A stretch of DNA of 38,737 nucleotides, taken from contig NC_057718.1 of NCBI RefSeq assembly GCF_004010195.1, positions 80,060,555 through 80,099,291 of the forward strand. The letters run 5' to 3'. Origin of the DNA: Chiloscyllium plagiosum. Taxonomy: Eukaryota. Both the position numbers and the translations under genes were made by a program. Below, piece after piece: positions 738-37,855 of this stretch (position 1 is its first letter; each line of letters opens with the position of its first letter). Under the pieces are notes generated by a model that saw only the letters and a list, made by a program, of their open reading frames with translations, was not told the DNA's origin and did not search any database.

Positions 738-995
738 TAAACAAAAACAGAAATTTCTGGAGGAAGTAAGCAGATCTGGCAGCATTTGTGGACAGAAAAC
801 AGAGTTAAGTTTTTGGGTCCAGTGACCCATCTTCAGAATTGTGACAGAATTGAAAAAAAATTTTTATCTTGATGACAGGGGGTGGTGGAAAAAGGAGTGA
901 GCACATCGATGGAGACAGAGCCCAGAGACAGAGTGAGGAAAGAAAGTCAAATACTAGTTTTTCGTAGATGCTGAGTTCTGAAGAAGGATCACTGG
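738..995 (-). mobile_element. Penelope-like element terminus fragment (family B) with decayed hammerhead motif
   Basis: Similar to the terminus at 29580-29800. Minus strand 802-840 reads CTGAAGA-T-GGGTC-ACTG-GACCC-AAAAAC-TT-AACTC; a partial inverted copy GAGTTCTGAAGAAGGATCACTGG lies at 973-995. Confidence 0.75.
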
Positions 996-999
996 TAAT

Positions 1000-1380
1000 G
1001 GTAATTGCTGCTAGGTTAAAATTTTATTCTAAATTGAAGATTAATTGATCTTGGTCAACTAGACATATTAAAGGACAAATGGAAAAGACAGAGATATAGT
1101 AATACGGGTTCAACCACAAATCAGGTCAGGCAGCATCCAAGGAACAGGAGAATCGATGTTTCGGGCATAAGCCCTTCCTTAGGAGGCTTATGCCCGAAAC
1201 GTCGATTCTCCTGTTCCTTGGATGCTGCCTGACCTGCTGCGCTTTTCCAGCAACACATTTTCAGCTCTGATCTCCAGCATCTGCAGTCCTCACTTTCTCC
1301 TCAACCACAAATCAGCCAGGATTTCATTTAATGGTGGAATATGCTTTAAGACCAAAATGACCGTATCCTGTTCCTGAGGT
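1000..1380 (+). mobile_element. Old CR1 3' end fragment, interrupted by a fold-back insertion
   Basis: atcagccaggatttcatttaatgg...cctgttcct resembles the CR1 3' end at 6089-6165. Confidence 0.6.
1125..1300 (+). mobile_element. Mini fold-back PLE-terminus insertion 1 (family A)
   Basis: 52-nt inverted arms 1122-1173 and 1185-1236 (1 mismatch); 15-bp TSD TCAACCACAAATCAG at 1110-1124 and 1301-1315. Confidence 0.9.
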
Positions 1381-2686
1381 GATTGGGGCTTATAGCTGTG
1401 CTTTTACAATCTGGCATTTCCATGTTGCCTTGCTTCTCCGGAAGTAGCCCTAACTGGCATTCAACGATTATCTCACGACAACTGACAACTTCTTGGAGAT
1501 TTTGTATTCAATCTTTTGTGGCACCCATTGATGTAAATCATCCAGCCACATGGATTTACATAATTTTAACTCTTTTTACTTTTATTCGAGCCTGAGAATT
1601 TTATGCAATCACACCAGAGTCACTAGCTGACATACAAATCTTTCTATTAGGCTGCATGCTAATATAATAACTATTTTCTGAACTAATCAGGCAGCGAGTT
1701 AACTTTTTTTAGTTCATCAACAATTTTCATTCTGTATTCTTAAGGGACTCTTCTTTCTTGACAATATTCCTGTTGTCATATGCTGGAAGAATTTCTTGCT
1801 GTAACATTTAGTATGTAGGTCTATGTTCATTTCTAGATCTCCATTTGCATTAATGACTGCCACTTCTTATTTTTTTTGTAAGTTTAAATTCTGTCATGCT
1901 GGAGGGAATTAAATATGTAACCATCACAAATGCCTACATAGTATGAAGAAGCAAACTGTGTGATGTGAGTTGATGGAATTTAAGTAAAAGCTGCCTTAAA
2001 GAAGTGATGCACTTCCTGACCTACCAGAATGCCCCTTCCACTGGGACACATAGCTGAACGGCATTGGGGAGTGAACAAATGGTTCTCACTGCAATTTGCA
2101 TGAATAGCACAGTAACAATCAGATAATTAGACATTTTTTCTGACAGTTAATTAAGACAAAAGGAGACAACTATTCCCAGAATACAACAGCTATTAGCGAG
2201 CACTTCTCTTCTGATTGAATCTCAAAGCTGGCCTTTAAGGTGAAAATGGCATTATTCTCATCAGCACTTTAAACATCAAGTAAAGGAGATTTTGTCCCTT
2301 GGTCCTTGAACACAATAAATCTACCATTTGTATTTTGTATCCTCTGAACTGCGCGTAATTTATCACTTTATTGAAAAGGTTCCATTATGCTAATGTTTTA
2401 CAAAAATCACTTGATCTTCTATGAGGTCAAAAGGCCATTTTTCTATGCATATGTTTGACTATGACTGATTTCTAATGTCACTGAAAGCAATACAAAAAAT
2501 ATAATGAAGATTATTCCCACATAGAGAAGTGTAAGAGAAAGAAAAGCATTAAGAGACCTCAGCGACAGTGCATTTAGAAAAAAAACTTAAGTCTATGCAA
2601 ATTCTGAAAGAAAAAAAGTCATAAAATAACAATATGAAAGCAATTAACTATTTTTAACAATGACCTTTATTGGTTCAGAGCACACA

Positions 2687-6789: not shown

Positions 6790-6907
6790 TAAGATGATTT
6801 GGAGGTGCTGGAGTGTACAAGGAGGTGCTCAAAGGAGCAGTGCTTAGAAATAGTGCTTCCAAATAAACTTGTTGGACTATAACCTGGTGTTGTGTGATTT
6901 TTAACTA
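6790..6907 (+). mobile_element. PLE family C terminus fragment
   Basis: tagtgcttccaaataaacttgttggactataacctggtgttgtgtgatttttaact is the near reverse complement of 33362-33417. Confidence 0.75.
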
Positions 6908-7034
6908 TCTTTGCAATGACTGTTATAACCACTGTGAGTCTGGCATCATATCTATGTAAGATAAGGTACAAGATAAGAATGTCAAGGGTTTTTGACTGAA
7001 GAACGTGAATGAACCAGATGGTTTAAATGATAGG

Positions 7035-8185
7035 AGACAGTAAGGACTGCAGATGATGGAAGTCAGAGGTGATAGATGTGAAGCTGGAAGGGCAGAGCAG
7101 GTCAGACAGCATCTGAGGAGCAGGAGAGTCAAAGATTCAGGCCAAAATCCTTTGTCAAGACTGGGGAGGGGAAGGGAGCCCACTTGTATATAGAGGGAAG
7201 GAGGTGGGGCTGGGAGAGGGGTAGGTGGAATGGTGGTAGGTGAAAGAAGGTTTCTTGTGATTGATCATTGGGAAAGATGAAATGGACAGGTGAGTAGGAA
7301 GATGGACAGGTGAGGACAGGTCAGGGAGGTGAAGAGGAGGGGTGAGGTTAGACATGGAATGAGGCTTGTGGAGGAGGGGTTTTGAAGCTGATGAAGTCAA
7401 ATGTTGAGGCCATTGGACTGTAAGCTTCCAGGCGAAAGATAAGGTGTTATTCCTTCAGTTTCCGTTTGGCCTAACTCTTGACAGTTGAGGAGGCCAAGGA
7501 TGGACGTGTCGACGGGGTATTGGGAGGGGGAAATTAAAGTGGATGACAACTGTAAGATCAGGTTGGTTAATGCATACTGAGTGCAAATGCTCCATGAACT
7601 GGTTCCCGAGTTTGTGTTTAGTCTCCCTGACATAGAGGAGACCAAATCAGGAGCAACGGATGCAATAGATGAGGTCGGATGACGTGTAGGTGAATTTCTA
7701 ACGGATCTGGAAGGATTATTTAGGGCCTTGAACAGAGGTAAGAGAGGAGGTGTGGGGGCAGGAGTTGTACCTCTTACTGTTGCAGAGAAAGGTATCAATT
7801 GTAGTGAAGAAGTTGGTGGGGGGTGTAGAGTTGACGATGGAGTTGCAGAGTGAGCAATCCATGTGGAAAGCAGACAGGGGTGAGGAAAGAAATGTCTTTT
7901 TAGTGGTAGGGTCTGATTGAGGTGGTATAAATGTTGGAGGATGAGACAATGGATTCGGAGGTTGATGGGGTGGTTGGTATCGTTATTGTTGTTGAGTCAA
8001 TTTCCAGAGATGGAGACAGAGAGGTACAGGAGGGGGAAGGAGGTGTCAGAAATGGTCCAGCTGAATTTGAAAGTGGGGTGGAAGGTAATGGTGAAGTTGA
8101 TGAATTGTGGGAGCATGAGGCAGCACCAATGCAGTCATCAATATAATAGAGGAAGAAGTGAGGGCTGGTGCTGGTGTAGTTGCAG
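7035..8185 (-). mobile_element. Penelope-like element (family A-related), minus arm: GIY-YIG region, 3' UTR and terminus
   Basis: Minus 7620-7680 encodes NLIYCIRCS*FGLLYVRET (GIY-YIG). Terminus aggactgcagatg...gcaggtcagacagcatctgaggagcaggag matches the mini elements. Inverted homolog of about 8890-10030. Confidence 0.85.
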
Positions 8186-8189
8186 AAGA

Positions 8190-10040
8190 GGGACTACTTC
8201 ATGAATCCTGCGAAGATAATTGCTGATAAGGGTGGCCCGGTGGTAGCATGGCGAACTGACCAATACATGGCTGAGACCAGATGCAAACTCTCTGACACCT
8301 CCACTTACCATCCCTTGACCATGACCTCTGATCACCAAGACATCATCTCCCAGACCATCAAAAACCTCACCATTTTGGGAGATCTCCCTTCTACAGCCTT
8401 CAATGTGATAGTTCCCCAACCCTGCATCATCCATTTCTATCTCCTACACAAAATCCTTAAACCAGACTGCCCCGCTCAATCCAAGTCATTACCTGCTCCT
8501 GCCCTACCAAGCTCATCTCCTCTTACCTCAACTCTGTTCTTTCCCCTTTGTATAGAAACTCCTCACCTACACTCGAGTCACAACCCACTTCCAAAACTTC
8601 AATTCCCTGGCCCCCAACATCTCATCTCTACCCTTTACACCTGCATCCTTCACAAGGAGGGCCTAAAAGCCCTTTGCTTCTTCCTCTCTTGTAGGCCCAA
8701 CTAGTGCCCCTCCACTGACACCCTTATTCGCCTGGCAGAACAGGTCCTCACCCTCAACAACTTTTTATTTTATTCCTCCTATTTCCTACAAACCAAAGGG
8801 GTAGCCATAGGCACCTGCCTGGGCCCCAGCTATTCCTATCTCTTTGTAGGATTCATGGAACAGTCTTTCTTTCGCAACTACACCAGCATCATCCTTCACT
8901 CCCTCCTTCGCTATATTGATGACTGCATCAGTGCTGCCTCATCTCCCCGTGAGGAGCTCACGTAGTTCATCAACTTCGCCAACACCTTCCACCCCACCCT
9001 CTAATTCACCTAGACCATTTCTGACATCTTATTACCCTTCCTGGACCTCTCCATCTCCATCTCTGGACATGGACTCAGCACTGATATCCATTTCAAACCC
9101 TTTACTCCCACAATTACCTCGTCAACACCTCTCGCCCACCTCCTGCAAAGATGCTACCCCATACTACCAATTCCTCCACCTCCACTGCATCAACTCCCAA
9201 GATACTCCAGGACATCGCAGATATCCTTCTACTTTACGGACCATAGTTTCCCCTCCGCAGTATTTAAGGATGCCCTCAACCATATCTCCTCCATCTCCTG
9301 CACTTCTGCCTTCAAACCCCTTGCTCCCAACAACAATGATAGAGTCCACTTAGTCCTCACATACCACCACACCAATCTCCAAAACCAATACATCATCCCA
9401 TGATATCATCCCATGACAGTTCTGCCAGCTACAATCAGACCCCACCACCAAAACGATATTTCCTTCCCCACCCCTGTCTGCTTTTCACAGTGACTGTTCA
9501 CTCTGAGACTCCCTCATCAACTCTACAATGCCCACCAAATTCTCTTCCACACAGTACCTTTCCCTGCAACTGCAAGAGGTGCAACTCCTGCCCCTACACC
9601 TCCTCCCTCACCTTCGTCCAAGGCCCTAAGCAACCTTTCCAGATCTAACAGAGATTCACCTGTACGTCATCCAACTTCATCTATTGCATCCGTTGCACCC
9701 GATGTGGTCTCCTCTATATCGGGGAGACCAAATGCAGACTTGGGGACCAGTTCACAGAGCAACTGCACTCAATACGCATTAACCAACCTGACCTTCCGGT
9801 TGCCATTCATTTCAATTCCCCCCTACCTTCCAACCCCCAGTCATCCTTGGCCTCCTCCATTGTCAGAGTGAGGCCAAACAGAATGGAGGAACAAAACCTT
9901 ATCTTTCGCCTGGGAAGCTTATAGTCCAATGGCCTCAACATTTGACTTCATCAGCTTCAAAATCCCTCCTCACTAAGCCTTATCCCATATCTAACCTCAC
10001 CCCTCCTCCTCACCTCCCTAACCTGTCCATGTTCCTACAT
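8190..10040 (+). mobile_element. Penelope-like element (family A-related), plus arm: RT + GIY-YIG, pseudogenised
   Basis: ADKGGPVV, GVAIGT, RYIDDC (YIDD 8912-8923), CNCKRCNSCPY and SNFIYCIRCTRCGLLYIGET (9670-9729); many frameshifts and stops. Confidence 0.9.
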
Positions 10041-10720
10041 TTGAGAGAGGGTGCTTGTGGGGTGTGAATGTGGGGGCATATCTGTGAGCGTATGAGAGAG
10101 AGCTTGTGTATGAGAGAGGGTCTGCGTGGGTGTATGGGTCTGTAGGAGTGCATGTGTGTGTATATATATGTGTATGTGTGAGAGAGAGACAGAGAGAGCA
10201 AGAGAGAGAGAGAGAGTATAGTGCAGTGAGGTCACCTGAACCCAAGGTCCCGGTTGAGGCCAGCCCCATGGGTACTGAACTTGGCTGTCAGCCTCTGCTC
10301 GGCCACTTTGCGTTGTTGCCTGTCCTGTAGTCTGCCTTGGAGGATGGTCACCTGAAGGTCCAAGGCTGAATGTCCCTGACCACTGAGGAGTTCCCCGACT
10401 GGGAGGGATCATGTCTTGTTCTTGATGTGCATGTTGTAGTTTGGTGTAGTTTTGGTGTAGTGCTTGGTGTAGTTTTGCTGCTTTGCCTGTTTGGCAATGT
10501 CACGTAACTGTACTGCTGCATCCTGGGTGCAAGCTGAGAGTGTGGACTCCATCTTGATTTCATGGTTGTGGCGCCTGCTATAGAGTTGGTGCACAAAATG
10601 ATTTAGGAGTTTGCAAGAGTTTAGGTGGCAAAGTTTCTCCACATACTCTATGTTGTAGGTTGATTTGAATGGGCTCGTGATCTGTAATCCTTTTTTCTGT
10701 GTCATTTTGCCAATCAAGGT
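10041..10720 (-). mobile_element. PLE family C inverted arm (N-terminal ORF piece fused to the GIY-YIG C-terminus and microsatellite-rich 3' UTR)
   Basis: ORF 10409..10717 ends ...YNMHIKNK, overlapping the start of the plus arm (NYTIYMHTKNK). 10090-10220 resembles the 3' UTR at 33985-34050. Confidence 0.75.
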
Positions 10721-11182
10721 GACAAACTACACCATTTACATGCACACCAAGAACAAGAACTGGAGAAACTTGGCATCAAGACCAGCAGTAGCCAAGACCC
10801 CGGCACCACAGTGGAAAATGTTATCACCACGGGGAAATCAATCGTCAACTTAGTAGATCACACCCTTCAACTGGAAGAGATTGAAGTTCTTAGCACGGGG
10901 CTCAATTTCTGGTACCCATGGATCTTGCAGCAGACACAGAGGAATTCATCAGATGAATGAGACTCTGGGAATTCTTTCAAGATGCCAGCAGTGATCCCAA
11001 TGAGCCCACCGACGAACTGGAACAGTCATCACAGAGATCCGTAGAGGAGCGACCAAAGAAGAAGTCAACGTGGACCCCACCAGAGGGCTGCTGACCTGGG
11101 CTTGACATGTGTGCTGAAACTGTCAGGAAATATATAAATGCCAGATTCATCAGCCGCACCCACAAGGTAAAGCAAAACAAGG

Positions 11183-11540
11183 TAGGCCTCCATTCTGACA
11201 GAGCGGTTAGGAGAGAAGGTAGAGAGAAGCGAGGGCTGTTGGGAAGGGTAAGTTTTCCCACTTAAAAAAAGAATTACCTCAGGAGTTGGGCCTCCATTTT
11301 GACAGAGCGGCAAGGAGAGAAGCGAGCGCTGCCGGGAAGGGTAAGTTTTCCCACTTAAAAAGGGACTTACCTCAGGAGTCGGGTCTCCATATTGACAGAG
11401 CAGCGACGAGAGGTGGAGAGAAGCAAGGGTTGCTGGGAAGGGACTTACCTTGGGAGTCAGGCCTCCATTTTGACAGAGTGGCGAGGAGAGAAGATGGAGA
11501 GAAGCGAGGGCTGCCGGGAAGGATAAGTTTTCCCATTTTT
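11183..11540 (+). repeat. Tandem array of about four 80-100 bp monomers in the CR1 5' UTR
   Basis: Unit ggcctccattttgacagagcggcgaggagag...gaagcgagggctgccgggaagg starts near 11185, 11288, 11381 and 11460. Confidence 0.9.
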
Positions 11541-11768
11541 TCCTGTCTGGGAGCAGCGGGAGACACAGCGGAAGTGGAGACCAAGAGAGTGCCGGGAAGG
11601 TAAGGACTTAGTATATATTTGGGCTGCGGCTAAACCCGAGATCCCTCCCGCTCATCTCCTCTAACCAGAAGAAAAAGATTCTGTAAGGTAAAGCGTTTTT
11701 TTATCTTTCTTTTTCATATTTAAGTGCATTGTTTGGTTGTAGTTAGTTATTATAAAGGTAGGCTTACA

Positions 11769-12705
11769 ATGGCAGGGGCCTTCAGACCCGTGGCGTGTGC
11801 CTCTTGCTTGATGTGGGAGCTTAGGAATGTTGCTGACGTTCCTGACTCTTACACTTGCAAGACGTGTGTCCAGCTGCAGCTGTTGTTTGACCGCATGACA
11901 GCTCTGGAGCTGTGGATGGACTCATAGTGGAGCATCTGCGATGCTGAGGAGGTCGTGGATAGCACGTTTAGTGAATTGTTCACACCACAGGTTAGAATTG
12001 CTGAGGGAGATTGTGAATGGGTGACCAAAAGGCAGAAAAAGAGTAAGAAGGCAGTGCAGGTGTCCCCTGCGGTCATCTCCCTCTAAAACAGGTATACTGT
12101 TTTAGATACTGTTGGGGGAGATGGCTCACCAGGGGAGGGCAGCAGTTGCCAATATCATGGCACTGTGGCAGGCACTGCTGTTCAGAAAGGTGGGAAAAAG
12201 ACTCGTAGGGCCATAGTCATTAGGGATTATATTGAAAGAAGAATAGACAGGCGGTTCTGTGGCCAAAAATGGGACTCCTGGATGGTGTGTTGCCTCCCAC
12301 TTGGGTCAGGGATGTCACCGATTGGCTGCAGAGCATTCTTAAAGGGAAGGGTGAACAGCCAGTTGTCTTGGTGCATATAGGCAGCAACGATATAAGTAAA
12401 AAACGAGATAAGGTCCTGAAAGAAGAATTCAGGGAACTAGGAGAGAAGTTAAAGAGGGTAAAGAAGGTAGTGATCTCAGGACTACTAACAGTGCCACATG
12501 CTAGCCAGCGGAGAAATGAAAAAATAGGCAGGAAGAACATGTGGCTTGAGGGATGGTGTATGAGGGAGGGGTTCAGGTTTGTTGGACATTGGGACCAGTT
12601 CTGAGGAAGGTGGGACTATTACAAAATGGATTGTCTACATCTGAACCAGACCGGAACCAATGTCCTTGGGAGAGTTTTTGCTACTGCTGCTGGGGAGATT
12701 TTAAA
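11769..12705 (+). pseudogene. CR1 ORF1: CxxC...CxxC zinc finger, coiled coil, SGNH-type esterase
   Basis: ATG at 11769; CASCLMW...YTCKTC, VVLVHIGSNDI, DCLHLN; stops and frameshifts. Confidence 0.85.
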
Positions 12706-13367
12706 CGAATGTGGCAGGGGGCTTGGAACCAGAGGGGAAGACAAGTAGACAGCGAGATGGAAATTGGAGACTGTAAGAATCATGAAGTTAGCGTTGATAA
12801 AATAGCATTAATAAGGGGAAGATGGGGCAGACAGCAGATGAACGCAAAAGAACTGGTGGCCTGAAATGCATCTACTTTAATGCAAAGAGTACAGTGTGTA
12901 AGGCAGATGAGCTTAGGGCTTGGATTGGTGCCTGGGAGTATGACATTATTGCAATCACTGAGACTTGGTTGAAGGAAGGGCATGATTGGCAACTAAATGT
13001 TCCAGGATATAGACCGCTTCAGACAGGACAGGAGGGAAGTAAAAGTGGGGGTGGAGTTGCACTGCTGGTCAGGGATGATATCACAGCTTGGGTAGTGAAG
13101 CATTATGGGTGGAGCTGAGAAATAAGAAGGGTGCAGTTACATTGTTGGGGCTGTATTACAAGCCTCCCAACAGTGAGCGTGAGGCAGAAGAACAAATACG
13201 TAAGCAGATTATGGAAAGATGTAGAGGCAATAGGGTAGTGGTGATGGGAGATTTTAATTTTCCCAACATTGACTGGGATACACTTAGCGTCAGAGGTCTG
13301 GATGGGGTAGAATTTGTAAGAAGCATACAGGAGATTTTCTAGAGCAGTATGTCAATAGTCTGATGAG

Positions 13368-13547
13368 ATTCTGGATTAGAGGTACTGGAAAAGCACAGCA
13401 GTTCAGGCAGGTATTCCTGATGAAGGGCTTTTGCCCGAAACGTCGATTTTACTGCTCCTCGGATGCTGCCTGAACTGCTGTGCGTTTCCAGCACCTCTAA
13501 TCCAGAATCTGGTTTCCAGTATCTGCAGTCATTGTTTTTACCTTTTA
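13368..13547 (+). mobile_element. Mini fold-back PLE-terminus insertion 2 (A-related subfamily) inside the CR1 endonuclease
   Basis: 45-nt inverted arms 13366-13410 and 13466-13510 (2 mismatches); 14-bp TSD AATAGTCTGATGAG 13354-13367 and AATAGTCCAATGAG 13548-13561. Confidence 0.88.
13411..13452 (+). ncRNA. Minimal type I hammerhead ribozyme motif, core intact
   Basis: CTGATGA (13417-13423), A, GGGC-TTTT-GCCC, GAAA (13437-13440), CG, TC; predicted cleavage after C13444. Stem I is weak. Confidence 0.8.
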
Positions 13548-16500
13548 AATAGTCCAATGAGGGAAGGGGCCATATTGGACCTGGTAATGGGGAATGAGCC
13601 AGGACAGGTGGTAGAAGTTGCAGTCGGGGATTTCTTTGGGAACAGTGACCACAATTCTGTAAGTTTTAGAATACTCATAGACAAAGATGAGAGTGGTCCT
13701 AAGGGAAGAACACTAAACTGGGCCAAGGTCAATTATTTCAAAATTTGGCAGGAGCTGGGAAATGTGGACACAGCTATTTGAAGGGAAGTCTGCATTTGAT
13801 ATGTGGGAGGCTTTCAAAGATAGGTTAAAGATAGTGCAGGATAGGCATGTCCCGTTGAAGGCAAAGGATAGGAAAGGCAAGATTTGTGAACCGTGGATGA
13901 CAGGAGAAATCGTACGACTAGCCAAGAGGAAAAGGGAAGCGTACATAAGGTCCAGGCAGCTAAGAACAGAATGGGCCCTAGAGGAATATCGGAAGAGTAG
14001 GACCAGTCTTAAATGAGGAATCAAGCGGCTAAAAGGGGTCATGAAATAGCTTTAGCGAACAAAATTAAGGAGAATCCCAAAGCATTTTATTCTTATATAA
14101 GAAGCAAATGGGTACTTAAAGAAAGGGTTGGTCCATTAAAGGCTAATGAAGGAAAGCTGTGTGTCGAACCTGAGAGAATGGGTGAGATTCTGAATGATTA
14201 CTTTGCATCAGTGTTCACAAAAGAGAGGAACATGATGAATGTTGGGATTAGAGATAGAAGTTTGATTAGTCTGGATCAGGTTGACATAAGTAGGGAAGAT
14301 GTGTTGGCAAGGCTAGAGGTTATTAAATCCTCAGGACTGGATGGGATCTATCCCAGGTTGCTGAGGGAGGCGCAAGAGGAAATAGCTGGGGCCCTAGCAG
14401 ATATCTTTCTGGCATCCTTAAACAGATGAGGTGCCGGAAGACTGCTCACATTGTTCCTCCTGTACAAGAAGGGTAGTAGGGATATTCCAGGTAACTACAG
14501 ACCAGCGAACCTGACGTCAGTGGTGGGAAAGTTGCTGGAGTAGGTACTGAGGGATAAGATCTAATGATATTTAGAAAAGAATGGGCTCATCAGGTTTTGT
14601 GCGGGGGAGATCGTGCCTTACCAACTTAATAGAGGTCTTTGAGGAAGTGACCAAGTTCTTTGAGGAAGTGACCAAGTTGATAGATGAAGGAAGGGCTGTT
14701 GATGTCATATACATGGATTTTATTAAAGTATTTGATAAGGTTCTACATAGTAAAGTAATATAGAAAGTGGAGTCACATGGTGTGCAGGGTGTTCTAGCTA
14801 GGTGGATAAAGAACTGGTTGAGCAACAGGAGACAGAGAGTAGTAGTTGAAGGGAGTTTCTCAAAATGGAGAAAGGTGACCAGTGGTTTTCCACAGGGATC
14901 AGTGCAGGGGCTACTGTTGTTTGTGATGTACATAAATGATCTGGAAGAGGGCACTGTTGGTATGATCAGCAAGTTTGCAGATGACATGAAGATTGGAGTA
15001 GGAGAAAGCATAAGGGAGTCAAAGAACACAGGAGAATATAGATAGACTGGAGAGTTGGGTGGCAAAGTGGCAGATGGAGTTCAATCCAGGCAAATGTGAG
15101 GTGATGCATTTAGGCAAGTCTAATTCTAGAGCAAATTATACAATGAACGGAAGAGCCTTGGGAAAGGTTGATGAGCAGGGAGATCTGGGAGTGCAGGTCC
15201 AATGTACCCTGAAGGTTGCTGCACAGATGGATAGAGTGGGCAAGAAGGCATATGCTTGCCTTCACCGGACAGGGTATTGAGTATAAGAGCTGGCAAGTCA
15301 TGTTGCAATTGTACAAGACATTGGTTCGGCCACATTTAGAATACTGTGAACAGTTCTGGTCACCACATTACCAAAAGGATGTGGACGCTTTGGAGAGGGT
15401 GCAGAGAAGGTTTATGAGGAGGTTGCCTGGTATAGAAGGTGCTAGCTATGAAGAGAGGTTGAGTATATTAGGTTTGTTTTCATTAGAAAAAAGGAGATGG
15501 GGGGGGACGGGGACCTGATTGAGGTCTACAAAATCATGAAGGGTATAGACAGAGTAGATAAAGATAAGCTTTTTCCCAGGGTGAAGGATTCAATAACGAG
15601 AGGTCACGCTTTCAAGGTTGAGAGGTGAAAAGTCTCAGGGGGATACATGCGGCAAGTGCTTTACACAGAGGGTGGTGAGTGTCTGGAACGCGTTGCCATC
15701 AGAGGTAGTGGAGGCAGGCACGGTAGATTCATTTAAGATGCATCTGGACAGATGCATGAGTAGGTGGGGAACAAAGGGATACAGATGTTTAGAAATTGGG
15801 TGACAGGTTTAGACAGTGGATTTGGATCGGCTCAGGCTTGGAGGGCCGAAAGGCCTTTTCCTGGGCTGTAAATTTTCTTTGTTCTTTTCTTTGTTCTTTA
15901 GCACCCAATCACAACACAATGCCATCCATGCTCTCAAAACCAATCACAATATTGTCATCAAACAAGCAGATAAAGGAGGAGACATCATCATTCAGAATAA
16001 ACTGCCTATTGCAAGGAAGTGTACCAACAACTGAAGAACCAGGAACACTATAGGCAACTGCCAGCCTATCTGACCAAAGAGCACACCCATGAACTAAAAC
16101 ATTGATCTTTGATGCAGTCGTTCAGAGCCCTCATCCCATGTACTTCTTGCGTAGGAGACTTCTACTGCCTACTGAAGATACACAAAGCTAACACACCAGG
16201 ACATCCCATCATATCAGGCAATGGGACCCTGTGTGAGAACCTCTCTGGTCATGTCAAAGGCATCTTGAAACCCATTGTACAGGGGACCCCCAGCTTCTGT
16301 TGCGACACTACAGATTTCTTACAGAAACTCAATACCCATGGACCAGTCGAACCGGGAACATTCCTCGTCACAATGGATGTTTCAGCACTCTATACCAGCA
16401 TTCCCCACAATGATGGCATCGTGGCAACAGCCTTAGTACTCAATACCAACAACTGCCAGTCTCCGGCACTATCCTACAACTCATCCGCTTTATCCTCGAT

Positions 16501-24580: not shown

Positions 24581-25179
24581 AGGAAAACTAAAGCTTTCCT
24601 GTTGAAATAGAACATGCTTGGGAAATAAGGTGATAGAATCATAGAATTTTACAGTATAGAAGGAGGTCATTTGATCCGTCGTGTCTGTACTGGCTCCTAA
24701 AAGGCTCCAGCTAGTTCCATTCTTCAGTTCAATCTCCATAGTCCTCTAAACTCATCACTTACAAATACATATTCAGCTCTCTTTTGAAACCTCCCATGGC
24801 ATCTGCTTCCACCACTCTTCCAGGCTGTGCATTCCAAATGCTAATAACTCTCTAAGAGGTCTTTCCATATCTCACTCCAGCTTCTTGCTGATAGTCTTGA
24901 AATTATGATGCCTCGCTGCTGACATACCAACAAAAGGAAACAGAATATCATTCTTTGACCTGACAAAACTGTTAGTAATTTTGAACACCTCAATAAGGTC
25001 ACCTCTTAATCTTCTCTACACGAAGAGAATAAGCCCAATTTCTCTAATCATTCCTTATATCTAAAATCCATCACTCTTATAAATCTCCTTTTCACTTTTT
25101 CCAGTGCTTTAAAATCCTTCCTTAGATAAGATGCCCAGAATTGAACATAATACTTCTAATGTGGTCTGACCAATGATTT

Positions 25180-25351
25180 CGACGTTTCCGGCATAAGCCC
25201 TTCTTCAGGAATTCCTGAAGCCATTCCTGAAGAAGGGCTTATGCCCGAAACATCGATTCTCCTGTTCCCTGGATGCTGCCTGACCTGCTGCACTGTTCCA
25301 GCAACACATTTTCAGCTCTGATCTCCAGCATCTGCAGACCTCACTTTTTCC
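25180..25351 (+). mobile_element. Mini fold-back PLE-terminus insertion 4 (family A)
   Basis: 34-nt inverted arms 25179-25212 and 25223-25256; perfect 14-bp TSD CTGACCAATGATTT at 25166-25179 and 25352-25365. Confidence 0.92.
25221..25260 (+). ncRNA. Minimal hammerhead motif, with a second copy on the minus strand at 25179-25212
   Basis: Plus: CTGAAGA (25227-25233)-A-GGGC-TTAT-GCCC-GAAA-CA-TC. Minus: CTGAAGA-A-GGGC-TTAT-GCCG-GAAA-CG-TC. Confidence 0.75.
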
Positions 25352-27004: not shown

Positions 27005-27342
27005 GAGGAGAAAGTGAAGACTGCAGATGCTGGAGATCAGAGTCGAGAGTGTGGTGCTGGAAAAGTACAGCAGATCAGGCAGCATTTGAGGAGCAGGAGA
27101 ATTGATGTTTCGGGCATAAGCCTGTGGGCCGGGGGACTGAGAGATGTATGGGAGGGTTGTCGGGTTGGGGAAAGGTAGCTGGGAATGTGACAGATAGATG
27201 AAGGTGCGGGTGGAAGTGATAGTCTGACAGGAAGGTGGGCAATGGTGCTGGGGCTCCTGATGAAGGGCTTATGCCCAAAACGTTGATTCTCCTGCTCCTT
27301 GGGTGCTGCATAACATGCTATGCTTTTGCAGCACCATGTTTT
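27005..27342 (-). mobile_element. Fold-back PLE-terminus insertion 5 (older, longer)
   Basis: Minus terminus plus 3' UTR, then an inverted arm from 27255 with CTGATGA-A-GGGC-TTAT-GCCC-AAAA-CG-TT. TSD CAATTTAATATTGAA 26990-27004 and CAACTTAATATTGAA 27343-27357. Confidence 0.85.
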
Positions 27343-29579
27343 CAACTTAATATTGAACTTCATTATATTACAATCACAATTTCCAATGTACCCCACCACA
27401 TTCTCCACTCGGACTGCATAATTTCCTAGGACTAAAGCCAGCACAGCTTCGTCCCTGTTGAATGGAAATACACTATTTCAGAAAGTTCACCTGAACACAT
27501 TTCAGGAATTTCTCCCCTTCTGGGCCCACACCCTACCTTTTTCCCAGTGAACCCTAAGATTATTAAAATCACCAATTATAGCAACTCCACTTGCCCTGTA
27601 GATTTCCACAATCTGCCTACAAATGCTCTCTTTGGTGGACTATAATTAATACCTCAAATTCCACATCCAACCATCTAGATTCCAATTCAGGAACTACAAT
27701 TCATTCAAAGGCAATTTTACTATCTTTGATAAAAACTGCTACAACACCTCCCTTTTTACCTGTTTCTACAGAAAACTTGAGAACCCAGGATATTGCTTAT
27801 CCAGTCCTGTTCTGGCTTGAGCCACATTTCTGTCAATGCTACTATGTCACAGAGCAACTTCTGTTTCCAGTTCCGCAATTTTGTTCATTCTACTCCGTAC
27901 GCTTTTATACATACAATTTTATCCTGCCTTTATCCCTTTCTTCTTCAGTGGAAGGCGACTATCTCTTTGTTTACTGTCAACACTCAGGCCTTCTCTCACT
28001 TCCTTGTCCCCATTTCCTATCTTCTCTCTTTTGCCCTCTTTGGTACTTCCAAACTAGGCCTATTAGTCCAGCCATCCCCGCCTTACAAGATTAAATCCAC
28101 CCCCAATACATTAGTTACTCTCTCAGCCAGGAGATTAATTTCATTTCTGCTCAGGTTAAGCCCATCTCTTTTGAACAGCTTTCTCCTTTCCTAAAAGTGA
28201 TCCCAATGTTCCAAAGCTCTACACCCATCCCCTTCTACACCATCGCTCAAGCCATGAACCTACCTACCTGATCTACCTTTGCCTAAATAACAACACTTGT
28301 GGCACCGGTATTATTTCTGAGATGACTACCTTCAAGGTCCTCTGTTTCAACCTAACTCTTATAACTGATCCTGCAAGACCGCCAAGCTATCCCTGTCAAT
28401 ATTGTTGGTTCCCACATGGACCACAACTACTGGTTGCTCACACTCCCTTTCCAGAAGTTTATCCAGGAATTCCACTGTGTTCCAAACTCTTGCAACTGTG
28501 AGGCAACAGAATAACATGACTCACGATCTAAGCTGCAAACGAGGCTGTCTATCCCTTAGACTAGTGACTCACCTACAATCTTTCTAACCTGCCTACTAGC
28601 CTCTCTCTCTTTTCCCAGAGTAGCTTTGGGCAACATGGTCCTGTCATTCACCTTGAGTCATCCACACCCAACTCAGTCATGTTGTTCACTCAGTAGGCAT
28701 CTAAAAATTCACACCTGTTAGACAGCTCCAAGGAGTCTTGGATTTCCTGGGCCTGCTGTCTCTTTTCTTTTCAGTCAGCCACTCATCGCCACCTCTACTT
28801 TTTGCCCATTTAGCACAAATGGAGTGACCACCTTCTGGTATGACTGCTCCAGAAATCTCTCTCCTTCTTGTACAGTGCACAGTGAAAAAGAGTCACTGCT
28901 CCAAATCAGCAATATGTTGCTCATGGACTACTACCCTTTGAACTTCAAGTATCTGTGACCATCCTGGATATCTTATGGATCCAAAACATTCCACATTTTT
29001 ATGCCACACACATCACAAGCTTTCCCAAAGTTCCTGCCATCTATATAGGTCAAAATGATGCACACTGCTGAGGCTCTACAGTTTCTAAGCCAAAAAGAAA
29101 TACTTTAATACCCCTTCTCTCTCTTTTTGCTTCAAAGAGTGAGGGAAATACAATATAATAATGAAATGTTTCGGTCTTCACTGTTCTTTGACACTTTCCC
29201 TCCACAATCCGTCTGTTAGTTGTGATCAGCAAGCCGATTCTCCCAGAATCCCCTTGGTTACTTCTCAGTACCACACCCTGTCCTCAGATGCCATGGATGT
29301 AGGAAAGCTGTGAACAAAATGGAGGGAGAGGAAGGGGTTTCTCGGCAGAAAGCCACATCTTCTCAGGTTGGTTTAGCAAACATTTCTCCTATATGAACCT
29401 CAGTAAGGCACAATGACTGGAATTTTAAGATGTTGCAATTATTCTGTCACAATTTGGGAATTCGGGGGCACCCCTAACTCAGTCAGTTGTGGGAAATCCA
29501 ACTCAATTTGTGAGCAGCAGGCAGCTAACTGTCTGCCATCAGTGTTCATATCTTCTTAAGGAACAAAGTGTCCCTTTCA

Positions 29580-31535
29580 CAAATAAAAGTAGAAGTTGCT
29601 GTAAAAGTTCAGCAGGTCTGGCAGCATCTGTGAAGAGAAATTAAAGTTAATGTTTCAGGTCCAGTGACCCTTCCTCACTACTGATGATAGCTAGAAAAAT
29701 GTTGGCATATATGCAGAAGATAGTGTGGAGGGAGGAGGTAAGGAATAATTGATAAGTAGGGATAGAGCCCATAGAGGGAGAAGAACAGCTGGACAGACAA
29801 AGGAGTCAATAAAAATCTAGCTAGGAGAGTGAATCGCTGTTAATGGAAACTACTAGCGGCGAACAATGGGTAGTGTGGAATGGCAGACTATGTGATTACA
29901 AGGCTGGGCATATGGTGTAGGAGGCTGGATCACAGGGGAGTTCAGGCCCAAAAAAATGATTGAACTCGATATTGAGTTTGGAGGGCTGCAGGGTTGCCAA
30001 TGAGATGTTGTTCTTCCAGATTGCGCTGAGCTTCGCTGGAGCACTGCAGCAAGCCTGAGACAGAAATATTGGTCAAATGGTATGTTAATGTGGAAGACAA
30101 CTGGGAGCTCAGCATCTTTTTTTTGTGGTCAGAACGTAGATGTTCTGTGAAGTGGTTACCCAGTCTCTGCTTCATTTCCCCAATGTACAGGAGACCACAC
30201 TGTGAGCAAGAAATTAGATCGTGTGAAGTGCAGGTAAAGTGTTGCTTCTCCTGGAAGACGTATCTGGGCCTTTGGATACTGAGGAGGGAGGAAGTAAATG
30301 GGTTGGTGTTACACCTTCAGTGGTTGCAGGGAAAGATGCCATGGAGCTGTGGGGAGTTGTTTGGAGTGAAGGAAGAGTGAACCAGAGTGTCCAGGATAGA
30401 ACTTTCCTTTGGAAGGCGGACAAGGAAGGGGAGGGGACAAGAGTCTGGTAGCGGCATCTCACTGGAGGTGGTAGAAATGGGAGCTGATGTACGTGGATAC
30501 TGGTGGGATGGTCGGTAACGACAAAGGAAACCCTATTGCGGTTGCGGGATGGAAGAAAGAGGGTGAAGGCGCGAGTACAGGAGATGGGTTGGACCTGATT
30601 GAGGAAGAAGGTGGACATTTCAGAGGCTCCCTGATCAAAGTTGGCCTATCGGAACATATGTAATGGAGACAGAGGAGCTGGGAGAATGGAATGGAGTCTT
30701 TACAGGAAACATGGTGTGAGGATGTATAGTCCAAGTGGCTGTGGAGTCAGTGGGTTTATAAATATTAATGGTCGTCTATCCTCAGAAATGGAAACAGAAA
30801 TGTCGAAGAAGGGGAGGAGGAGTCAAAGATAGACCATGTGAAAGTGAGGGTGGGGTGGAAATTGGAAGCGAAATCGATGAGCGTTTTCAATTCTAGATAA
30901 GAGAGGGAAGCAGCACTGATGATATCATTGAAATATCATATAAAGAATTATGTGTCATGTACCACATGAAGTGACAGGCATAACTGGGGCCAATGCCACC
31001 CCTCTGACCTGAAGACAATGAGAGGAGTTAAAAGAGAAGTTGTTGAGGGTGAGGATGAGCGCGGCCAAGCTGATGAGGTTGGTGGTGGGTGGACACGGTT
31101 CAGGCCTTTGCTCAGGAAGAAGCGGAGAGCCCTGAGACCATCTGGTGAGAGATGGACGTGTAAAGGAATTGCAGATCCATAGTAAAGAGGAGCCAGCTGG
31201 AGCCTGCAAACTGAAAATCACAAAACTGGCATAAAGTATCAGAGGAATCATGGATGTACATGGGCAGGAACTGGATCAGGGAGAAAAGACTGAGTCAAGA
31301 TTGGAAGAGATGAGTTCTGTAGAGCAGGAGCAAACTGAAACAATGGGTCTGCCTGAGGAGTCTTGCTTGTAGATTTTTGGAAAGTGGTAGAAGCGAGTTG
31401 TGTGGGGTTGGGGGACTATCAGCTTGGATGCAGTGGGGCAAGATCACCTGACGAAAGGAGGTCAGTGATTGTAGTTGATACAATGGCCTGATATGCCATG
31501 GTGGGATCATGGTCCGGAAGAAGATTGGAGGTGTC
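29580..31535 (-). mobile_element. Penelope-like element family B (RT + GIY-YIG + terminus), decayed
   Basis: Minus: CSQCGLLYIGEMKQRLGNHFTEHLR near 30135-30210, MDYTSSHHVSCKDSIPFSQ, VRGVAL; decayed hammerhead near 29646-29680. Confidence 0.85.
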
Positions 31536-33361: not shown

Positions 33362-34925
33362 AGTTAAAAATCACACAACACCTGGTTATAGTTCAACAGA
33401 TTTCATTAGAAGCACTAGCTTTCAGAGCATTGCTTCTTCATCAGGTGGTTGTGCAGTATAAGATTTTAAAACACGATTTGGAGATGCCGTGTTGGATTGG
33501 GGTGTTGGACACAGAATTTATAGCAAAGGTTTATAGTGTGACATAATTGAAATTATATATTGAAAAAGACCTGGATTGTTTATTAAGTCTCTCATCTGTT
33601 AGAATGACCATGTTGGTTTCTGTTCTTTCATAAGTAAATCGTAAAACATTTTTAAAAGTGACATTCTCAAGTGAACTTTAACGATTGGTGACATGTTGAC
33701 CCAGATAATGTATTGAAGGTGTGAGCTTCCCTGTGTGAGACAGTCTGTGCCACAATGGTCAGACTGTCTCTAATCTAAAAAAATGATTTACAGAATCTGA
33801 CATGGATACATGCAGTTTTTGAGCAAAGTAAAATATAATTCTGCAAGTACATATTCACCCCACAAATTTATATGTATGTGCATGTGTGTGTGTTAGAGTT
33901 AATGGTGTCTGTGTGAGAGTGAGTGTAAAAGGGTATAGGTCTGTGAGAGAGTGTGTGTAAAAGTATGGGAGTGTATGTGTGAGCATATGAGAGAGGGTCT
34001 GCGTGAGTGTGTGTGTGTCTGTAGGAGCGTGTGTGTGTGTGTGTATATATGTAGGAGTCAGGAAGTAAATGTCATCAATATACCTGGTGTATAGTGTTGG
34101 TTAGAGGCCCTGCATAGAGAAGAAGTCTTGTTCGAACCTGTGCATGAAAATATTGGCATATTGGGGCGCACGTTTGGTCCCCATGGCTGTTCGTATGTCT
34201 GGCTGAAGAACTGGTTGTCAATGGTAAAGTTGTTGTGATCGAGGATAAAGTGGATGTAGTTGTAGGACGGTGCTCGGAGACTGGCAGTTGTTGGTGTTGA
34301 GTACTGAATCTGTTGCCGCATTGCCGTCATTGTGGGGGATGCTGGTGTAGAGTGCTGAAACGTCCATTGTAATGAGGAATGTTCCCAGTTCAACTGGTCC
34401 ATGGGTACTGAGTTTCTGTAAGAAATCTGCAGTGTCGCAACAGAAGCTGGGGATCCCTGTACAATGGGTTTCAAGATGCCTTTGACATAGCCCAAGAGGT
34501 TCTCACATAGGGTCCCATTGCCTGATACGATGGGACTTCCTGATGTATTGGCTTTGTGTATCTTTGGTAGGCAGTAGAAGTCACCTACACGAGAAGTACG
34601 TGGGATGAGAGTGCGTAGGGAATTCTGAAGGACTGGATCCAAAGTCCTGATCGATGTGTTTAGTTCATGGGTATGCTCTTCGGTCGGATCGGCTGGTAGC
34701 TGCCTGTCGTGTTCCTGGTTCTTCAGTTGTCGGTATATTTCTTTGCAGTAATCTGTTCTATTCTGAATGACGATGGCTCCTCCTTTATCTGCTGGTTTGA
34801 TGACAATGCTGTGATTGGCTTTGAGAGCATGGATGGCATTACGTTGTGTTCAGGTGATGTTCTGCTCCAGCTTGTGGATGTGGCTGATGAACCTGGCATT
34901 TATAAATTTCCTGACAGTTTCCATG
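33362..34925 (-). mobile_element. PLE family C copy with internal deletion (RT 5' half joined to the 3' UTR and terminus)
   Basis: ORF 34058..34642 parallels 16109..16954; LYTRYIDDIYF runs straight into the CA microsatellite; 3' UTR is the inverted homolog of about 17590-17970. Confidence 0.9.
33411..33449 (-). ncRNA. Minimal hammerhead motif (family C), stem II partly decayed
   Basis: Minus: ACCAC-CTGATGA-A-GAAGC-AAT-GCTCT-GAAA-GC-TA-GTGCT; stem I CAC/GTG; AGCT palindrome in place of stem III. Confidence 0.75.
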
Positions 34926-35029
34926 TCATGCATGTCATATATCTCCAAATCATGAATTGAATTTCGGTGCTTTAATTTCTATGTAACTTTGAGTAAAATT
35001 TCAAATGTGCAACACAGTTTGTTTTTACA

Positions 35030-35240
35030 TTCATTCATAGGACAAGGGTGTCATTGCATTCCCAATAAACCAACAGGTAGTTGAATCAATCACATTGCTT
35101 TGGGTCTGGAGTCAAAGGTAGATTAGATCCATGGGTAAGAATGGAAGATTTCCTACCCTAAAGGACATTAGTAAACCGGTTGAGCTTTTATGACAAAAGT
35201 TGCCATTAGGCCAGCCTTTTATTAACTTCAAATATTCAAA
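35030..35240 (-). mobile_element. Old SINE fragment related to 22750-23010
   Basis: atcacattgctttgggtctggagtca...agatttcctaccctaaaggacatt is shared with about 22805-22880. Confidence 0.55.
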
Positions 35241-35329
35241 CTTATGTGCTCTGAACTTCAGCCCTAGTTTTAGCTTTCCTATTTCAGGGGCATTGCCACT
35301 ATTTCACTGTCTTCCCCAATGTCCCATGG

Positions 35330-35680
35330 GAGATATGGCATAAAGTGTACAAACAAATGGTACAAGTAGAGATAAATAGTTTAGGTTTAAGTACCATTGC
35401 AGAAACATGGTTACATGGTGACCAAAGTTGGGAAATAAATGTTCTGAGTCTATAATATTTCAAAAAGACAAAGTATATGTAAAAGGAGAAGGAATAGTCC
35501 TGATTATAAAGGATCACATAGGGACAAGAGTGAGAAAGAATCTTGGCTTAGAAAGTCATGAAGTTGAATCAAAATGTCTGCCAACTAAGAATAGCAAGGG
35601 GCAGAGAATGCTGGTGACAGTGATTATTAAGTAGCTATACTGTTGGAAAGAGTTTAAACAAGAAATTAGTGGAATGTTAG
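35330..35680 (+). mobile_element. CR1 endonuclease fragment
   Basis: TIAETWLHGDQSWEINV and KGEGIVLIIKD. Confidence 0.65.
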
Positions 35681-35819
35681 TGAAATGAAAGACACTTTGT
35701 TGATGCTTTTCACCTTGCACTCATTAAGATATCACAAGAATATCAATGTTAAGGGGAATAACAATTTATTATTGTTTATGTTTATATATTTTTCAGTAAC
35801 GCTCAGGTTCTGTACTACA

Positions 35820-37270
35820 TTCGAACACACAAACAAGGAGCAGGAGTACGCCATTCAGACCCTCAAGACTGCTCCACCATTCAGTAAGATTGTGGCTAAT
35901 TGGATTATACCCTCAAATCCATATATCCACCTACCCCTGATAATCATTCACCCCATGCTGAACAAAAATATACCCATCTGCTTTCAACATATTCAAGAAC
36001 TTTGCTTCCACCAACTTTCCAAAAAAGAGTTTGAATGCTTTTCTGACAGTGTTGTTTATCCTAATCTATGTTTTAAATGTATGATCCGTGATTTATAAAC
36101 ACTCTCATGAAAAAAACCGTCTCCATACCTACTTTGTGAAGACCCCTCAGGATTTAATATGTTTCCATCAAGTAATCGGGTAAGCTCTTCTAAACTCCAG
36201 AAACAAGAACAAACCTAGCCTGTCCAACCTTACCATACAAGACAACCCATTGCTTCCAGGTATTAGTTGAAAAGTGTGGCTCTGGAAAAACACATCAGGT
36301 CAGGCAGCATCCAAGGTGTAGGAAAGTCAACATCTCGGGCATAAGTTCTTCATCCTGACGTGCACAGTACTCCAGATTAGGTCTCACCAGTGTCCTATAT
36401 AAGTAAAACATATCATCTCTACTTCTGATTTCAATTTTTTTCACGATGATTGACAACATTCTATTAGCTTTTACAATTACTTGCTATACTTTCGTACAAC
36501 TATCATGATGATAGAGGAATCCCAAAGGAGACAAACCCTGAAGTAAACAAATGGAACTTTAAAAAAAAGACATATAGCCAAAAGTATGGAAATGTAAATT
36601 TAGTTACTTTCTGGAAAGAAAGATTCTGGAGTGTCACGGCTCACAAGATAAGGAAGCTTCAAAGAGATGGACTTAAAAGGAAGAAATCGCAGCACAAACT
36701 GAATTGTAACCTCTTTGGAGCTATCTCAGACTGTGAACGTTCTAAAAGGCAAAAACACCCCAGCAATCTGAATGATAGATATGTTTGGAGTCTTCTTTCA
36801 AGAATACACAAGCACAGGGTATAAAACCAATTAAAGCCTGGTTTCTCTGTGTTAGTGGAAGAATGTGTCCTGTTGAGCAGAGGTGCTCATGTGTGCCAGT
36901 AGACTGCAGTGCTCCTGTGTACTAGCATGGATGTGAGCAGGAGTGTGCTGTGAACATAACATTCTTTTAGCTTTCCTGATTACTTGCTGCATTTGCATAC
37001 TAAACATCGTGATTCATGTAATGGGACACACCGATCTTTCTACATCTCAGAGCTCTGCAACCTCTTACCATTTAAGTAATGTTTCTTTATTACTCTTTCT
37101 GCTAAAATATTCTATTTGCGAGATCTTTGCCCACTCTTTTAACCTATTTGTATCCATTTGTAGCCTCCTTATGTTCTCTTCACAACTCACTTTCCTACCT
37201 ATCTTTGTGTCATCAGCAAATTTAGTTACCAAATTGTCAGTCTCTTCTCCCAAATCATTTATATAACTTT
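35820..37270 (-). mobile_element. Decayed CR1 3' region, interrupted at about 36268-36355 and 36490-36950
   Basis: VTKFADDTKIG...LQMDTNRLKEWA in ORF 37065..37253; CR1-like tail at about 35820-35900. Confidence 0.7.
36268..36355 (-). mobile_element. Decayed family A PLE terminus fragment
   Basis: ctggaaaaacacatcaggtcaggcagcatccaagg...tcgggcataag. Confidence 0.7.
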
Positions 37271-37351
37271 TTAAATTTATTCATGGAAAGTGGGTGTTGC
37301 TGGCTGACCAGCATTTCTTACCCATTCCTAATCGCCCTTGAAAAGATGGTG

Positions 37352-37855
37352 CGGAAAGTGAGGACTACAGATGCTGGAGAGTCAGCTTCAAAAAGTGTGG
37401 CATTGGAAAAGCACAGCAGGTCAGGCAGCATCCAAGGAGCAGGAGAGTTGACGTTTCAGGCATAAGCCCTTCATCAGGAATGTGGAGAGGGAAGGGCACT
37501 GAGAGATAAATAGGGGGTTGGAGGTGGGGCTGGGAAAATGTAGCTGGGAAGGTGATAGGTGGATGCAGGTGAAAGGTATAAGTGATAAGTCGGTGGAGCA
37601 GGTGGAGCAGATAGGTGGGAAGGAAGATGAACAGGTAGGACAGGTCAAGAGGGTGGTGCTGAGTGGAGGATTGTATCTGGGATGAAGCAGGGTGGGGGGT
37701 GGGGAGATTTGGAAACTGTGAAGTCGATATTGATGTCGTGTGATTAAAGGGTCCCAATGTGGAAGATGAGGAGTTCTTCCTCCAGTTATTGGGTGACTTG
37801 GATTTGGCAGTGGAGGAGGCCCAGGACTTGCATGTCCTTGGTGGCGTGGGAGGCG
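37352..37855 (-). mobile_element. Family A PLE 3' end (GIY-YIG C-terminus, 3' UTR, terminus)
   Basis: Homologous to about 7035-7530 and to the mini elements; links the mini elements to a coding PLE. Confidence 0.85.
37445..37484 (-). ncRNA. Minimal hammerhead motif (family A)
   Basis: Minus: CACATTC-CTGATGA-A-GGGC-TTAT-GCCT-GAAA-CG-TC. Confidence 0.7.

Follow-up and report, generated by a model that had tools for sequence, protein, structure and literature searches.

Decaying copies of probable minimal hammerhead motifs with compensating stems in three families of shark Penelope-like elements

Why should repeats in one stretch of shark DNA carry the same hammerhead core within different stems? 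The question arises from a 38,737-nt stretch of Chiloscyllium plagiosum (NC_057718.1, positions 80,060,555 to 80,099,291, forward strand; 'the window' below means this whole stretch), for which an earlier note, made from the letters alone, had proposed that three families (A, B and C) of Penelope-like elements (PLEs) keep one hammerhead core with different, covarying stems. The central proposal held up, as each motif lies downstream of its own reverse transcriptase (RT) and GIY-YIG endonuclease frame and the family-level letters keep the boxes. We are highly confident that the motifs are minimal hammerhead ribozymes (min-HHRs), and only slightly less so of the fuller statement that they are minimal type-I hammerheads in the 3′ pseudo-long terminal repeats (pLTRs) of three RT plus GIY-YIG PLE families, present here as decaying copies. 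The kind has been known since 2014 and what is new here is the three shark families. No shark-specific description of PLE hammerheads was found in the literature; the supplements of a retrozyme preprint, Lunse et al. or Repbase may list them.

The window is repeat-rich animal DNA (GC 41.9%), and about 30% of it, by hand-drawn intervals, is PLE-derived. The longest frame of interest (16106-16954) matched 13 longer proteins, the best named ones being from sharks (Heptranchias, Scyliorhinus and Mustelus, E to 5e-80), and when four of these relatives were domain-scanned RVT_1 was present in all four and GIY-YIG in two. With RVT_1- and GIY-YIG-bearing relatives as tblastn queries the broken PLE frames could be mapped and divided into three groups. 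Group A comprises 8222-9939 (plus), 7314-8216 as its inverted partner and the end of an endonuclease near 37860-37725 (minus); group B is 31434-29942 (minus); group C comprises 10730-11178 plus 15903-17566, with a CR1-like long interspersed nuclear element (LINE) between them, 34948-34053 (minus) and 10408-10238 (minus). The endonuclease and RT pieces of A and B share 45-68% protein identity, two C pieces share 85% DNA identity and C-like proteins are about 30% identical to A. All PLE frames in the window are broken, and for this reason Pfam gave no RT or GIY-YIG match on 22 window frames (three of the 22 matched other families); a PDB search with one relative (P0006) returned no matches. As read from these broken frames, an RT is followed in one frame by a C-terminal GIY-YIG domain with a CCHH motif, and the CX2-5CxxC linker between RT and endonuclease is intact in A (about 9565-9590) and in the C relatives P0003 and P0006, and decayed in the window copies of B and C.

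In each family a minimal type-I hammerhead lies 250-500 nt downstream of the RT plus GIY-YIG frame in the sense orientation, and all three occupy the place of the 3′ pLTR. The family A hammerhead begins about 250 nt after the endonuclease end at 37725, and occurs again at 7158; since the region 37352-37860 carries both the GIY-YIG end and a hammerhead, it ties the family A motif to its coding frame. In family B the distance is about 265 nt from the stop at 29942. In family C the frame ending near 17566 is followed by an untranslated region (UTR) that aligns with the region upstream of the 33444 copy (E 2e-46), and because 15903-17990 carries both the frame and a hammerhead stub the C motif is likewise tied to its frame. 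A sensitive search gave totals of 13 family-A pieces in eight insertions, two B insertions and three C pieces (Table 1). The stems first described were composites of decayed copies, and nine of the family-A pieces and two of the C pieces (6814-6911 and 17967-17990) had been missed.

Family-level letters were taken from 12 aligned window pieces for A, from contigs of three sequencing runs for B and from two to three window copies for C, and the consensuses built in this way keep the core boxes: CUGANGA, an extra A between positions 9 and 10.1, GAAA and U16.1 are common to all three. CUGANGA with one extra base and G10.1 is found in the A majority, in the B contigs and copies 836 and 978, and in C copy 33444, and the GAAA box with U16.1-H17 lies at 13437-13444 (A), 29656-29649 (B) and 33423-33416 (C). 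Helix II is closed by G10.1-C11.1 in A (4 bp) and in B (5 bp, copy 828); in both full copies of C its inner three pairs are Watson-Crick and the outer two are putative. In A (ACGU) and C (AGCU) a palindrome at 15.1-16.1 takes the place of helix III, that of B being broken in both window copies, and helix I is short (2, 4 and 3 bp in A, B and C respectively). A strict descriptor (both boxes, helix II of at least 3 bp, helix I of at least 2 bp and a palindromic 15.2-16.2) matched once in the window, at 13417, and not at all in 60 dinucleotide shuffles; with one mismatch allowed there were two matches in the window and none in 30 shuffles. An Rfam scan of the window contained no hammerhead family among 18 matches at E≤10. 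A covariance-model miss of this sort would be expected for motifs without helix III.

The published min-HHR consensus (NNN CUGANGAH G..C GAAAN palindrome NUH NNN; Cervera and De la Pena, 2014, PMC4209133) has the same type-I topology, CUGANGA, extra base before 10.1, G10.1, GAAA, palindromic 15.2-16.2 (here in A and C), NUH, short helix I and pLTR location. The same report describes several families per genome with compensatory changes, and copies that are mostly solo or opposite-strand pairs in truncated elements, and its alignment includes GC at 15.2-16.2 and A at 17, as here. The window motifs differ from that set in their host (the part of its supplement that was searched has no shark or Callorhinchus row) and in a helix II of 4-5 bp rather than up to 7-8 bp; the 2-bp helix I of family A is like that of D. 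virilis.

In family A the majority letters of the 12 aligned pieces make up the complete motif, and one copy, 13417 on the plus strand, is fully intact (CUGAUGA-A-GGGC/GCCC-GAAA-CGU-C, helix I of 2 bp, palindrome ACGU). The GGGC/GCCC stem with ACGU that had been ascribed to four copies is thus correct as it stands for 13417; copy 25227 has ACAU for ACGU, copy 27257 has AAAA for GAAA, and 37477 (minus) has GGGC/GCCU with a G-U pair and a broken 3′ arm of helix I. The intact copy lies with an inverted tail piece in the insertion 13366-13540, inside the CR1-like LINE. The proposal of the earlier note holds in outline and is overstated for single copies: most of those cited in the three families have broken boxes, and 13417 alone is intact.

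In family B motifs do occur at the three places first reported; the copies at 802-840 (C3 836) and 29646-29680 (C3 29678) lie on the minus strand and 973-995 (plus) is a stub that starts at the 5′ arm of helix I and ends inside the helix II hairpin. Copy 836 has AAAA for GAAA and copy 29678 has GUGAGGA in the first box. Four sequencing runs were mapped at 80% likeness to the family B end (29540-29960), the read mapping covering this family only, and three of these were DNA runs from three organisms (X1, X13 and X20; 26,964, 28,906 and 30,611 contigs mapped respectively). Both letters that spoil the box in copy 29678 are in the hammerhead state in the contigs: position 29678 (C3) is G in 95, 94 and 92% and position 29679 (U2.1) is A in 96, 96 and 94% of summed depth (X1, X13 and X20), so that the CUGA box is restored in 92-96% of depth in all three runs. 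The loose-end letters of these contigs read CAGUU-CUGAAGAA on the minus strand, and as CAGUU is read in all three DNA runs helix I of family B is AGUU/AACU with 4 bp. The 5-bp stem GAGTT/AACTC proposed before must be given up, since a GAGUU 5′ arm occurs only in the 973-995 stub. The possibility that helix I is fronted by a splice acceptor, as it is in D. virilis, was rejected, CAG being present in B and absent from main family A and from C.

In family C the AGCU palindrome and the CAC/GUG helix I reported for 33411-33449 are there, on the minus strand; the GAAGC/GCUCU stem contains a G-U pair and an A.C mismatch, leaving only its inner three pairs Watson-Crick, and the same inner three pairs are kept in a second copy at 6834. 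The letters of this family come from one copy for the first box and the triplet and from two copies for helix II. Upstream of the 33444 hammerhead, 33455-33530 (minus) holds a tail-like piece and a leader, both unlike the 17976 copy, pointing to two C subfamilies in partial tandem.

Table 1. Features of PLE families A, B and C in the window (positions counted from its first letter)
Feature	Position	Strand	Content
Family A minimal hammerhead, only intact copy	13415-13446	+	C3 13417; C17 13444, with the predicted cut following C17
Family A short head-to-head insertion	1122-1300		Junction within first box; 15 bp duplicated (1110/1301)
Family A short head-to-head insertion	18292-18478		Minus from U7/G8, plus from A15.1; 15-bp duplication 18278/18477
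Family A short head-to-head insertion	25179-25351		Minus C3 25208 (one helix II mismatch), plus C3 25227 (CAU for CGU); 14-bp target-site duplication 25166/25352
Family A insertion	27005-27347		Minus piece with first box deleted and some 3′ UTR; plus C3 27257; 11-bp duplication 26994/27347
Family A decayed solo copy	36265-36358	-	Starts within first box
Family A 3′ end	37352-37860	-	GIY-YIG C-terminus about 37860-37725, 3′ UTR, hammerhead C3 37477, tail
Older A-like element end	7033-8216	-	Endonuclease and 3′ UTR, then a heavily decayed hammerhead (C3 position about 7158) and a tail
Family A-type RT, linker CX4CxxC and GIY-YIG frame	8222-10028	+	Stops, frameshifts; forms an inverted pair with 7314-8216; truncated at the 3′ end ahead of its hammerhead
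Family B insertion	739-995		Minus: tail, hammerhead C3 836 (AAAA) and UTR of about 110 nt; plus: inverted stub, C3 978
Family B element end	29581-31434	-	Broken RT 31434-30630, GIY-YIG 30380-29942, 3′ UTR, hammerhead (C3 29678, N17 29649), tail
Family C RT fragment and hammerhead	33365-34948	-	RT 34948-34053, 3′ UTR, C3 33444, A17 33416, helix I CAC/GUG, palindrome AGCU, tail
Family C frame and hammerhead stub	15903-17990	+	Continues 10730-11178 across LINE; 3′ UTR; stub (C3 position 17976) truncated within helix II
Family C short copy	6797-6911	+	Starts at end of first box; helix II GGAGC/GCUUA; inverted tail-like piece before
Family C pieces	10072-11178		Endonuclease end 10408-10238 minus; N-terminal frame 10693-10451 minus, 10730-11178 plus
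Tail motif sites	1228, 6883, 13407, 18364, 18441, 27079, 29621, 33385, 36304, 37425		25-31 nt behind cut site where measurable

Pairs were compared across the families at core-anchored positions with the register set by the boxes (rows 7149 and 17982 were re-anchored by eye by 1-2 nt); an eight-copy sequence alignment places family C one column off register and was not used for pair counts. In helix I, pair 2.1-1.1 is C-G in A and C and U-A in B, pair 2.2-1.2 is U-A in A and B and A-U in C, and pair 2.3-1.3 is G-C in B, C-G in C and U.U in A. In helix II, pair 10.3-11.3 is G-C in A and B and A-U in C, and pair 10.4-11.4 is C-G in A, U-A in B and G-C in C, while pair 15.2-16.2 is C-G in A and G-C in C. 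This amounts to seven double, compensatory changes at six pairs, in three lineages of which two are related, too few for formal significance. As an outside control one degenerate pattern spanning the three cores was scanned against metagenomes and gave at least 115 loci, a set that includes chance matches; among the matches listed there were 116 with flanks, representing 57 distinct motifs. Helix I, which is not part of the pattern, reached at least 3 bp in 16 of the 57 against 3.3 expected (0 of 5000 shuffles), and 15.2-16.2 was Watson-Crick in 39 of the 57 against 30.0 in shuffles (40 of 5000). None of the listed loci is similar to the window at E≤1e-5, and a PLE-like protein match lies near four of them (L022, L042, L054 and L068); at L054 an endonuclease end lies about 180 nt upstream of the min-HHR-like motif on the same strand. 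The control supports the motif class and not the shark families as such.

Several observations weigh against the covariation and against the main reading. The U.U of family A, a mismatch at 2.4 in C, the outer two helix II pairs of C (not Watson-Crick in either full copy) and the palindrome of B depart from the pairing pattern in the window copies, and helix I of A consists of only 2 bp plus the U.U and an A-U. The 15.2-16.2 pair of B is broken in both window copies and absent from the table rows listed (40 of 68), as are the CpG positions 11.1 and 16.2, and the palindrome of this family is backed by one loose-end line of low agreement. When the intact copy was folded the hammerhead-like monomer reached -7.2 kcal/mol and a rival hairpin, in which the first box is paired with CGUC, -12.6 kcal/mol; the predicted dimer keeps the rival hairpin and the ACGU duplex alone contributes -1.7 kcal/mol. 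Ribozyme mutants of an Anolis PLE inserted normally in vitro (PMC11167929). The assignment of the three families to the Neptune type, which is likely, was made from the linker motif and not from a tree.

The modelled folding of the intact copy suggests weak activity, and in the published work on related motifs single copies of the motif did not cut and dimers cut weakly (PMC4209133), a dimer model that a review restates (PMC6765202). In active master elements the motif would likely fold as a hammerhead with predicted weak cutting, a dimer may form through the palindromic ACGU or AGCU, and cleavage would be expected after GUC in A, probably GUU in B, and CUA in C. The protein of the element probably assists the cutting, by analogy with the Anolis Poseidon element, whose ribozyme was reported to cut only with the element's protein and for which that report gives no RNA reads beginning or ending at the cut site (PMC11167929). 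The genomic copies were made from uncut RNA, because sequence is kept on both sides of the cut site.

The stage at which selection acted can be judged from the family-A copies. Mismatches to the majority, counted in nine of the 12 aligned pieces and including some junction letters and subfamily differences, were 8/95 (core), 7/72 (helix II), 3/36 (loop II), 4/18 (CpG palindrome), 1/34 (helix I) and 42/364 (tail). The core thus decays as fast as the loop, which indicates that selection acted on the master elements and not on the inserted copies. The selection on RNA structure that had been argued for is accordingly retained for master lineages and dropped for the copies themselves: the window copies are likely decaying fossils of a fold kept in master lineages by purifying selection during an RNA phase.

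Where the copies begin bears on what the fold was kept for. The start points of the 13 A pieces fall within the stretch from 5 nt ahead of C3 to the helix II base in eight cases and at the cut site in none; three others extend into UTR or coding sequence and two start later. Exact target-site duplications of 11-15 bp, together with inverted halves, mark four short A insertions, and a fifth (13366-13540) has, by eye, a 14-bp duplication with two mismatches. In family B the summed depth of the X1 contigs drops from 118,055 to 5,044 across the core front (about 23-fold; 5.7 on unique flank), although summed depth is not copy number, the tail bins include family A and mismatches of the window copy inflate the pile at 29677. 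Each run has 1,339-1,544 contigs with loose ends at the front edge of the B core, and among the opposite-strand joints listed (163 more are unlisted) 11 of 11 use 29673-29677. Inverted 5′-truncated copies and partial tandems are present. Most copies, all the same, were made from uncut RNA that ended, or on which the enzyme stalled, just before the core. The 467 reads that match the family B end in an RNA run (X21, single-cell polyA, about 2% of the run read) show no site where many molecules begin or end and are uninformative on cleavage.

Behind the core lies a 19-nt tail motif, CCWG-N6-TGHR-N-TTTT, found at 10 places in the window, all of them in PLE tails of A, B and C, against 0.07 matches on average in 200 shuffles; the pattern was written after alignment and fitted to these copies, so it is a lead only. 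It was found behind none of the 114 metagenome motifs among the matches listed and is therefore not a general min-HHR feature; possibly it is a protein-binding or priming signal. It also qualifies the statement that the flanks of the families differ, which holds for C against A and B: the tails of A are homologous to those of B (nhmmer E as low as 1.9e-5), and no nucleotide homology of A or B with C beyond the short tail motif was detected in an nhmmer-level search of the window. The family-A tail (1204-1300 and 13445-13540) folds as a multibranch hairpin closed by GAUGCUG/CAGCAUC (-17 to -22 kcal/mol, without a shuffle control), and this hairpin was not seen in the B and C tails as cut.

These ends give some weight to a possible, though in our view doubtful, alternative in which the main reason for keeping the hammerhead-shaped fold would be a non-catalytic role in marking where the template RNA begins, as a protein-binding site or transcript start, with cutting incidental. 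Eight of 13 family-A pieces begin at the core front and none at the cut site, the B depth fall, loose ends and listed joints lie there too, the tail motif +25 to +31 from the cut is common to three families, and the Anolis mutants mentioned above were unimpaired in insertion; an internal promoter in the pLTR has been shown for Drosophila Penelope (PMC2377424). Against it, what stays constant across the families is exactly the catalytic core plus a cleavable NUH, letters that a hairpin serving only for binding need not retain, the B depth drop and the ends at 29677 arise partly from two window-copy mismatches and subfamily UTR divergence, and an RT stall at the hairpin would yield the same ends. 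We would only tentatively propose that in shark PLEs the template RNA may start about 5 nt before the core and be copied uncut by the RT from an internal start some 100 nt downstream, with hammerhead and tail motif forming one protein-binding and priming module common to three distant families; tens of thousands of short copies would then map the two functional ends of the RNA, and cleavage would be no part of insertion. Which role PLE hammerheads play (cutter, transcript start or protein-binding site) is testable by junction counts and RNA-end mapping, and this genome offers very many dated copies with ends piled at the core front rather than the cut site.

It is unlikely that the short copies are instead an independent non-autonomous retrozyme family spreading via circular RNA. 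Short copies do far outnumber long ones in the B depth table, and pLTR-derived retrozymes have been reported in one chondrichthyan (bioRxiv 10.64898/2026.07.22.740005), those animal non-LTR retrozymes being, like the copies here, pLTR-derived non-coding short units with a type-I hammerhead. They are, however, head-to-tail tandems of at least two units, and the window has no head-to-tail tandem of hammerhead units, its direct-repeat families with the motif being 1-12 kb apart or inverted; the copies occur singly or as head-to-head pairs flanked by duplications of 11-15 bp, they align colinearly with coding elements at the 3′ end, and none begins at the cut site.

We consider it very improbable that the host has co-opted particular genomic copies and that selection maintains them as ribozymes in place. 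There is one fully intact copy, 13417, and family B is represented among the RNA reads, but the core is not spared in the family-A pieces (8/95 against 3/36 in loop II), the intact copy lies in a short insertion within a dead LINE, and the 467 RNA reads are on both strands with 99% continuing into unlike sequence, like passengers in other transcripts. Nor do we give more than minimal credence to chance or simple inheritance of the common boxes and pairings, free of structural selection, for although there are only three lineages, A and B are related and the stems were chosen after looking, there were no shuffle matches, the register is fixed by the boxes, C has no detectable nucleotide homology to A or B and yet keeps the boxes with both sides of four pairs replaced, and the same architecture is reported across metazoans (PMC4209133).

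The reading as min-HHRs of PLE pLTRs also fits two further known systems in part. Neptune and Nematis EN+ PLEs (Craig et al., 2021, PMC8557442) are described as having the same RT, C-terminal GIY-YIG with CCHH, CX2-5CxxC linker, pLTR with hammerhead and inverted 5′-truncated copies; here all frames are broken, and the likeness is by the linker and not by a tree. The Poseidon element PAc of Anolis carolinensis (Frangieh et al., 2024, PMC11167929) shares the pLTR hammerhead and the use of uncut RNA as template, and its copies extend about 85-100 nt beyond the cut site (97 nt in family A); it differs in belonging to Penelope/Poseidon, which lack the linker finger, and in an open reading frame that starts inside the hammerhead.

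Some minor features of the window deserve mention. The best Rfam matches (mir-680 and mir-734) are head-to-head pLTR hairpins and score far below the gathering scores; the insertions at 1131-1227, 18365-18439 and 25181-25254 have weak scores of this kind as microRNA precursors, and such hairpins could supply double-stranded RNA if transcribed. The segments 7314-8216 and 8841-10028 form a large inverted duplication of the family-A coding end with arms 79-91% complementary. From the nesting in 10730-17990 the sequence of insertions can be read: the CR1-like LINE interrupted a family C element and later received the family-A short insertion 13366-13540. This LINE (about 11180-15900) has GDSL-like and endonuclease Pfam matches, and its front (11184-11538) is an imperfect tandem of units of about 81-101 nt (families D5, D8 and D11). 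A shark protein annotated as an epn2 isoform (P0005) has one stretch that matches a portion of the family C frame at 80% identity, suggesting a PLE piece inside the gene model that is either real or an annotation error. Finally, a 275-aa open frame at 20000-20827 (minus) has a SCAN domain (PF02023, E 2.7e-9) and is likely a gag remnant of a Gypsy-type LTR retroelement.

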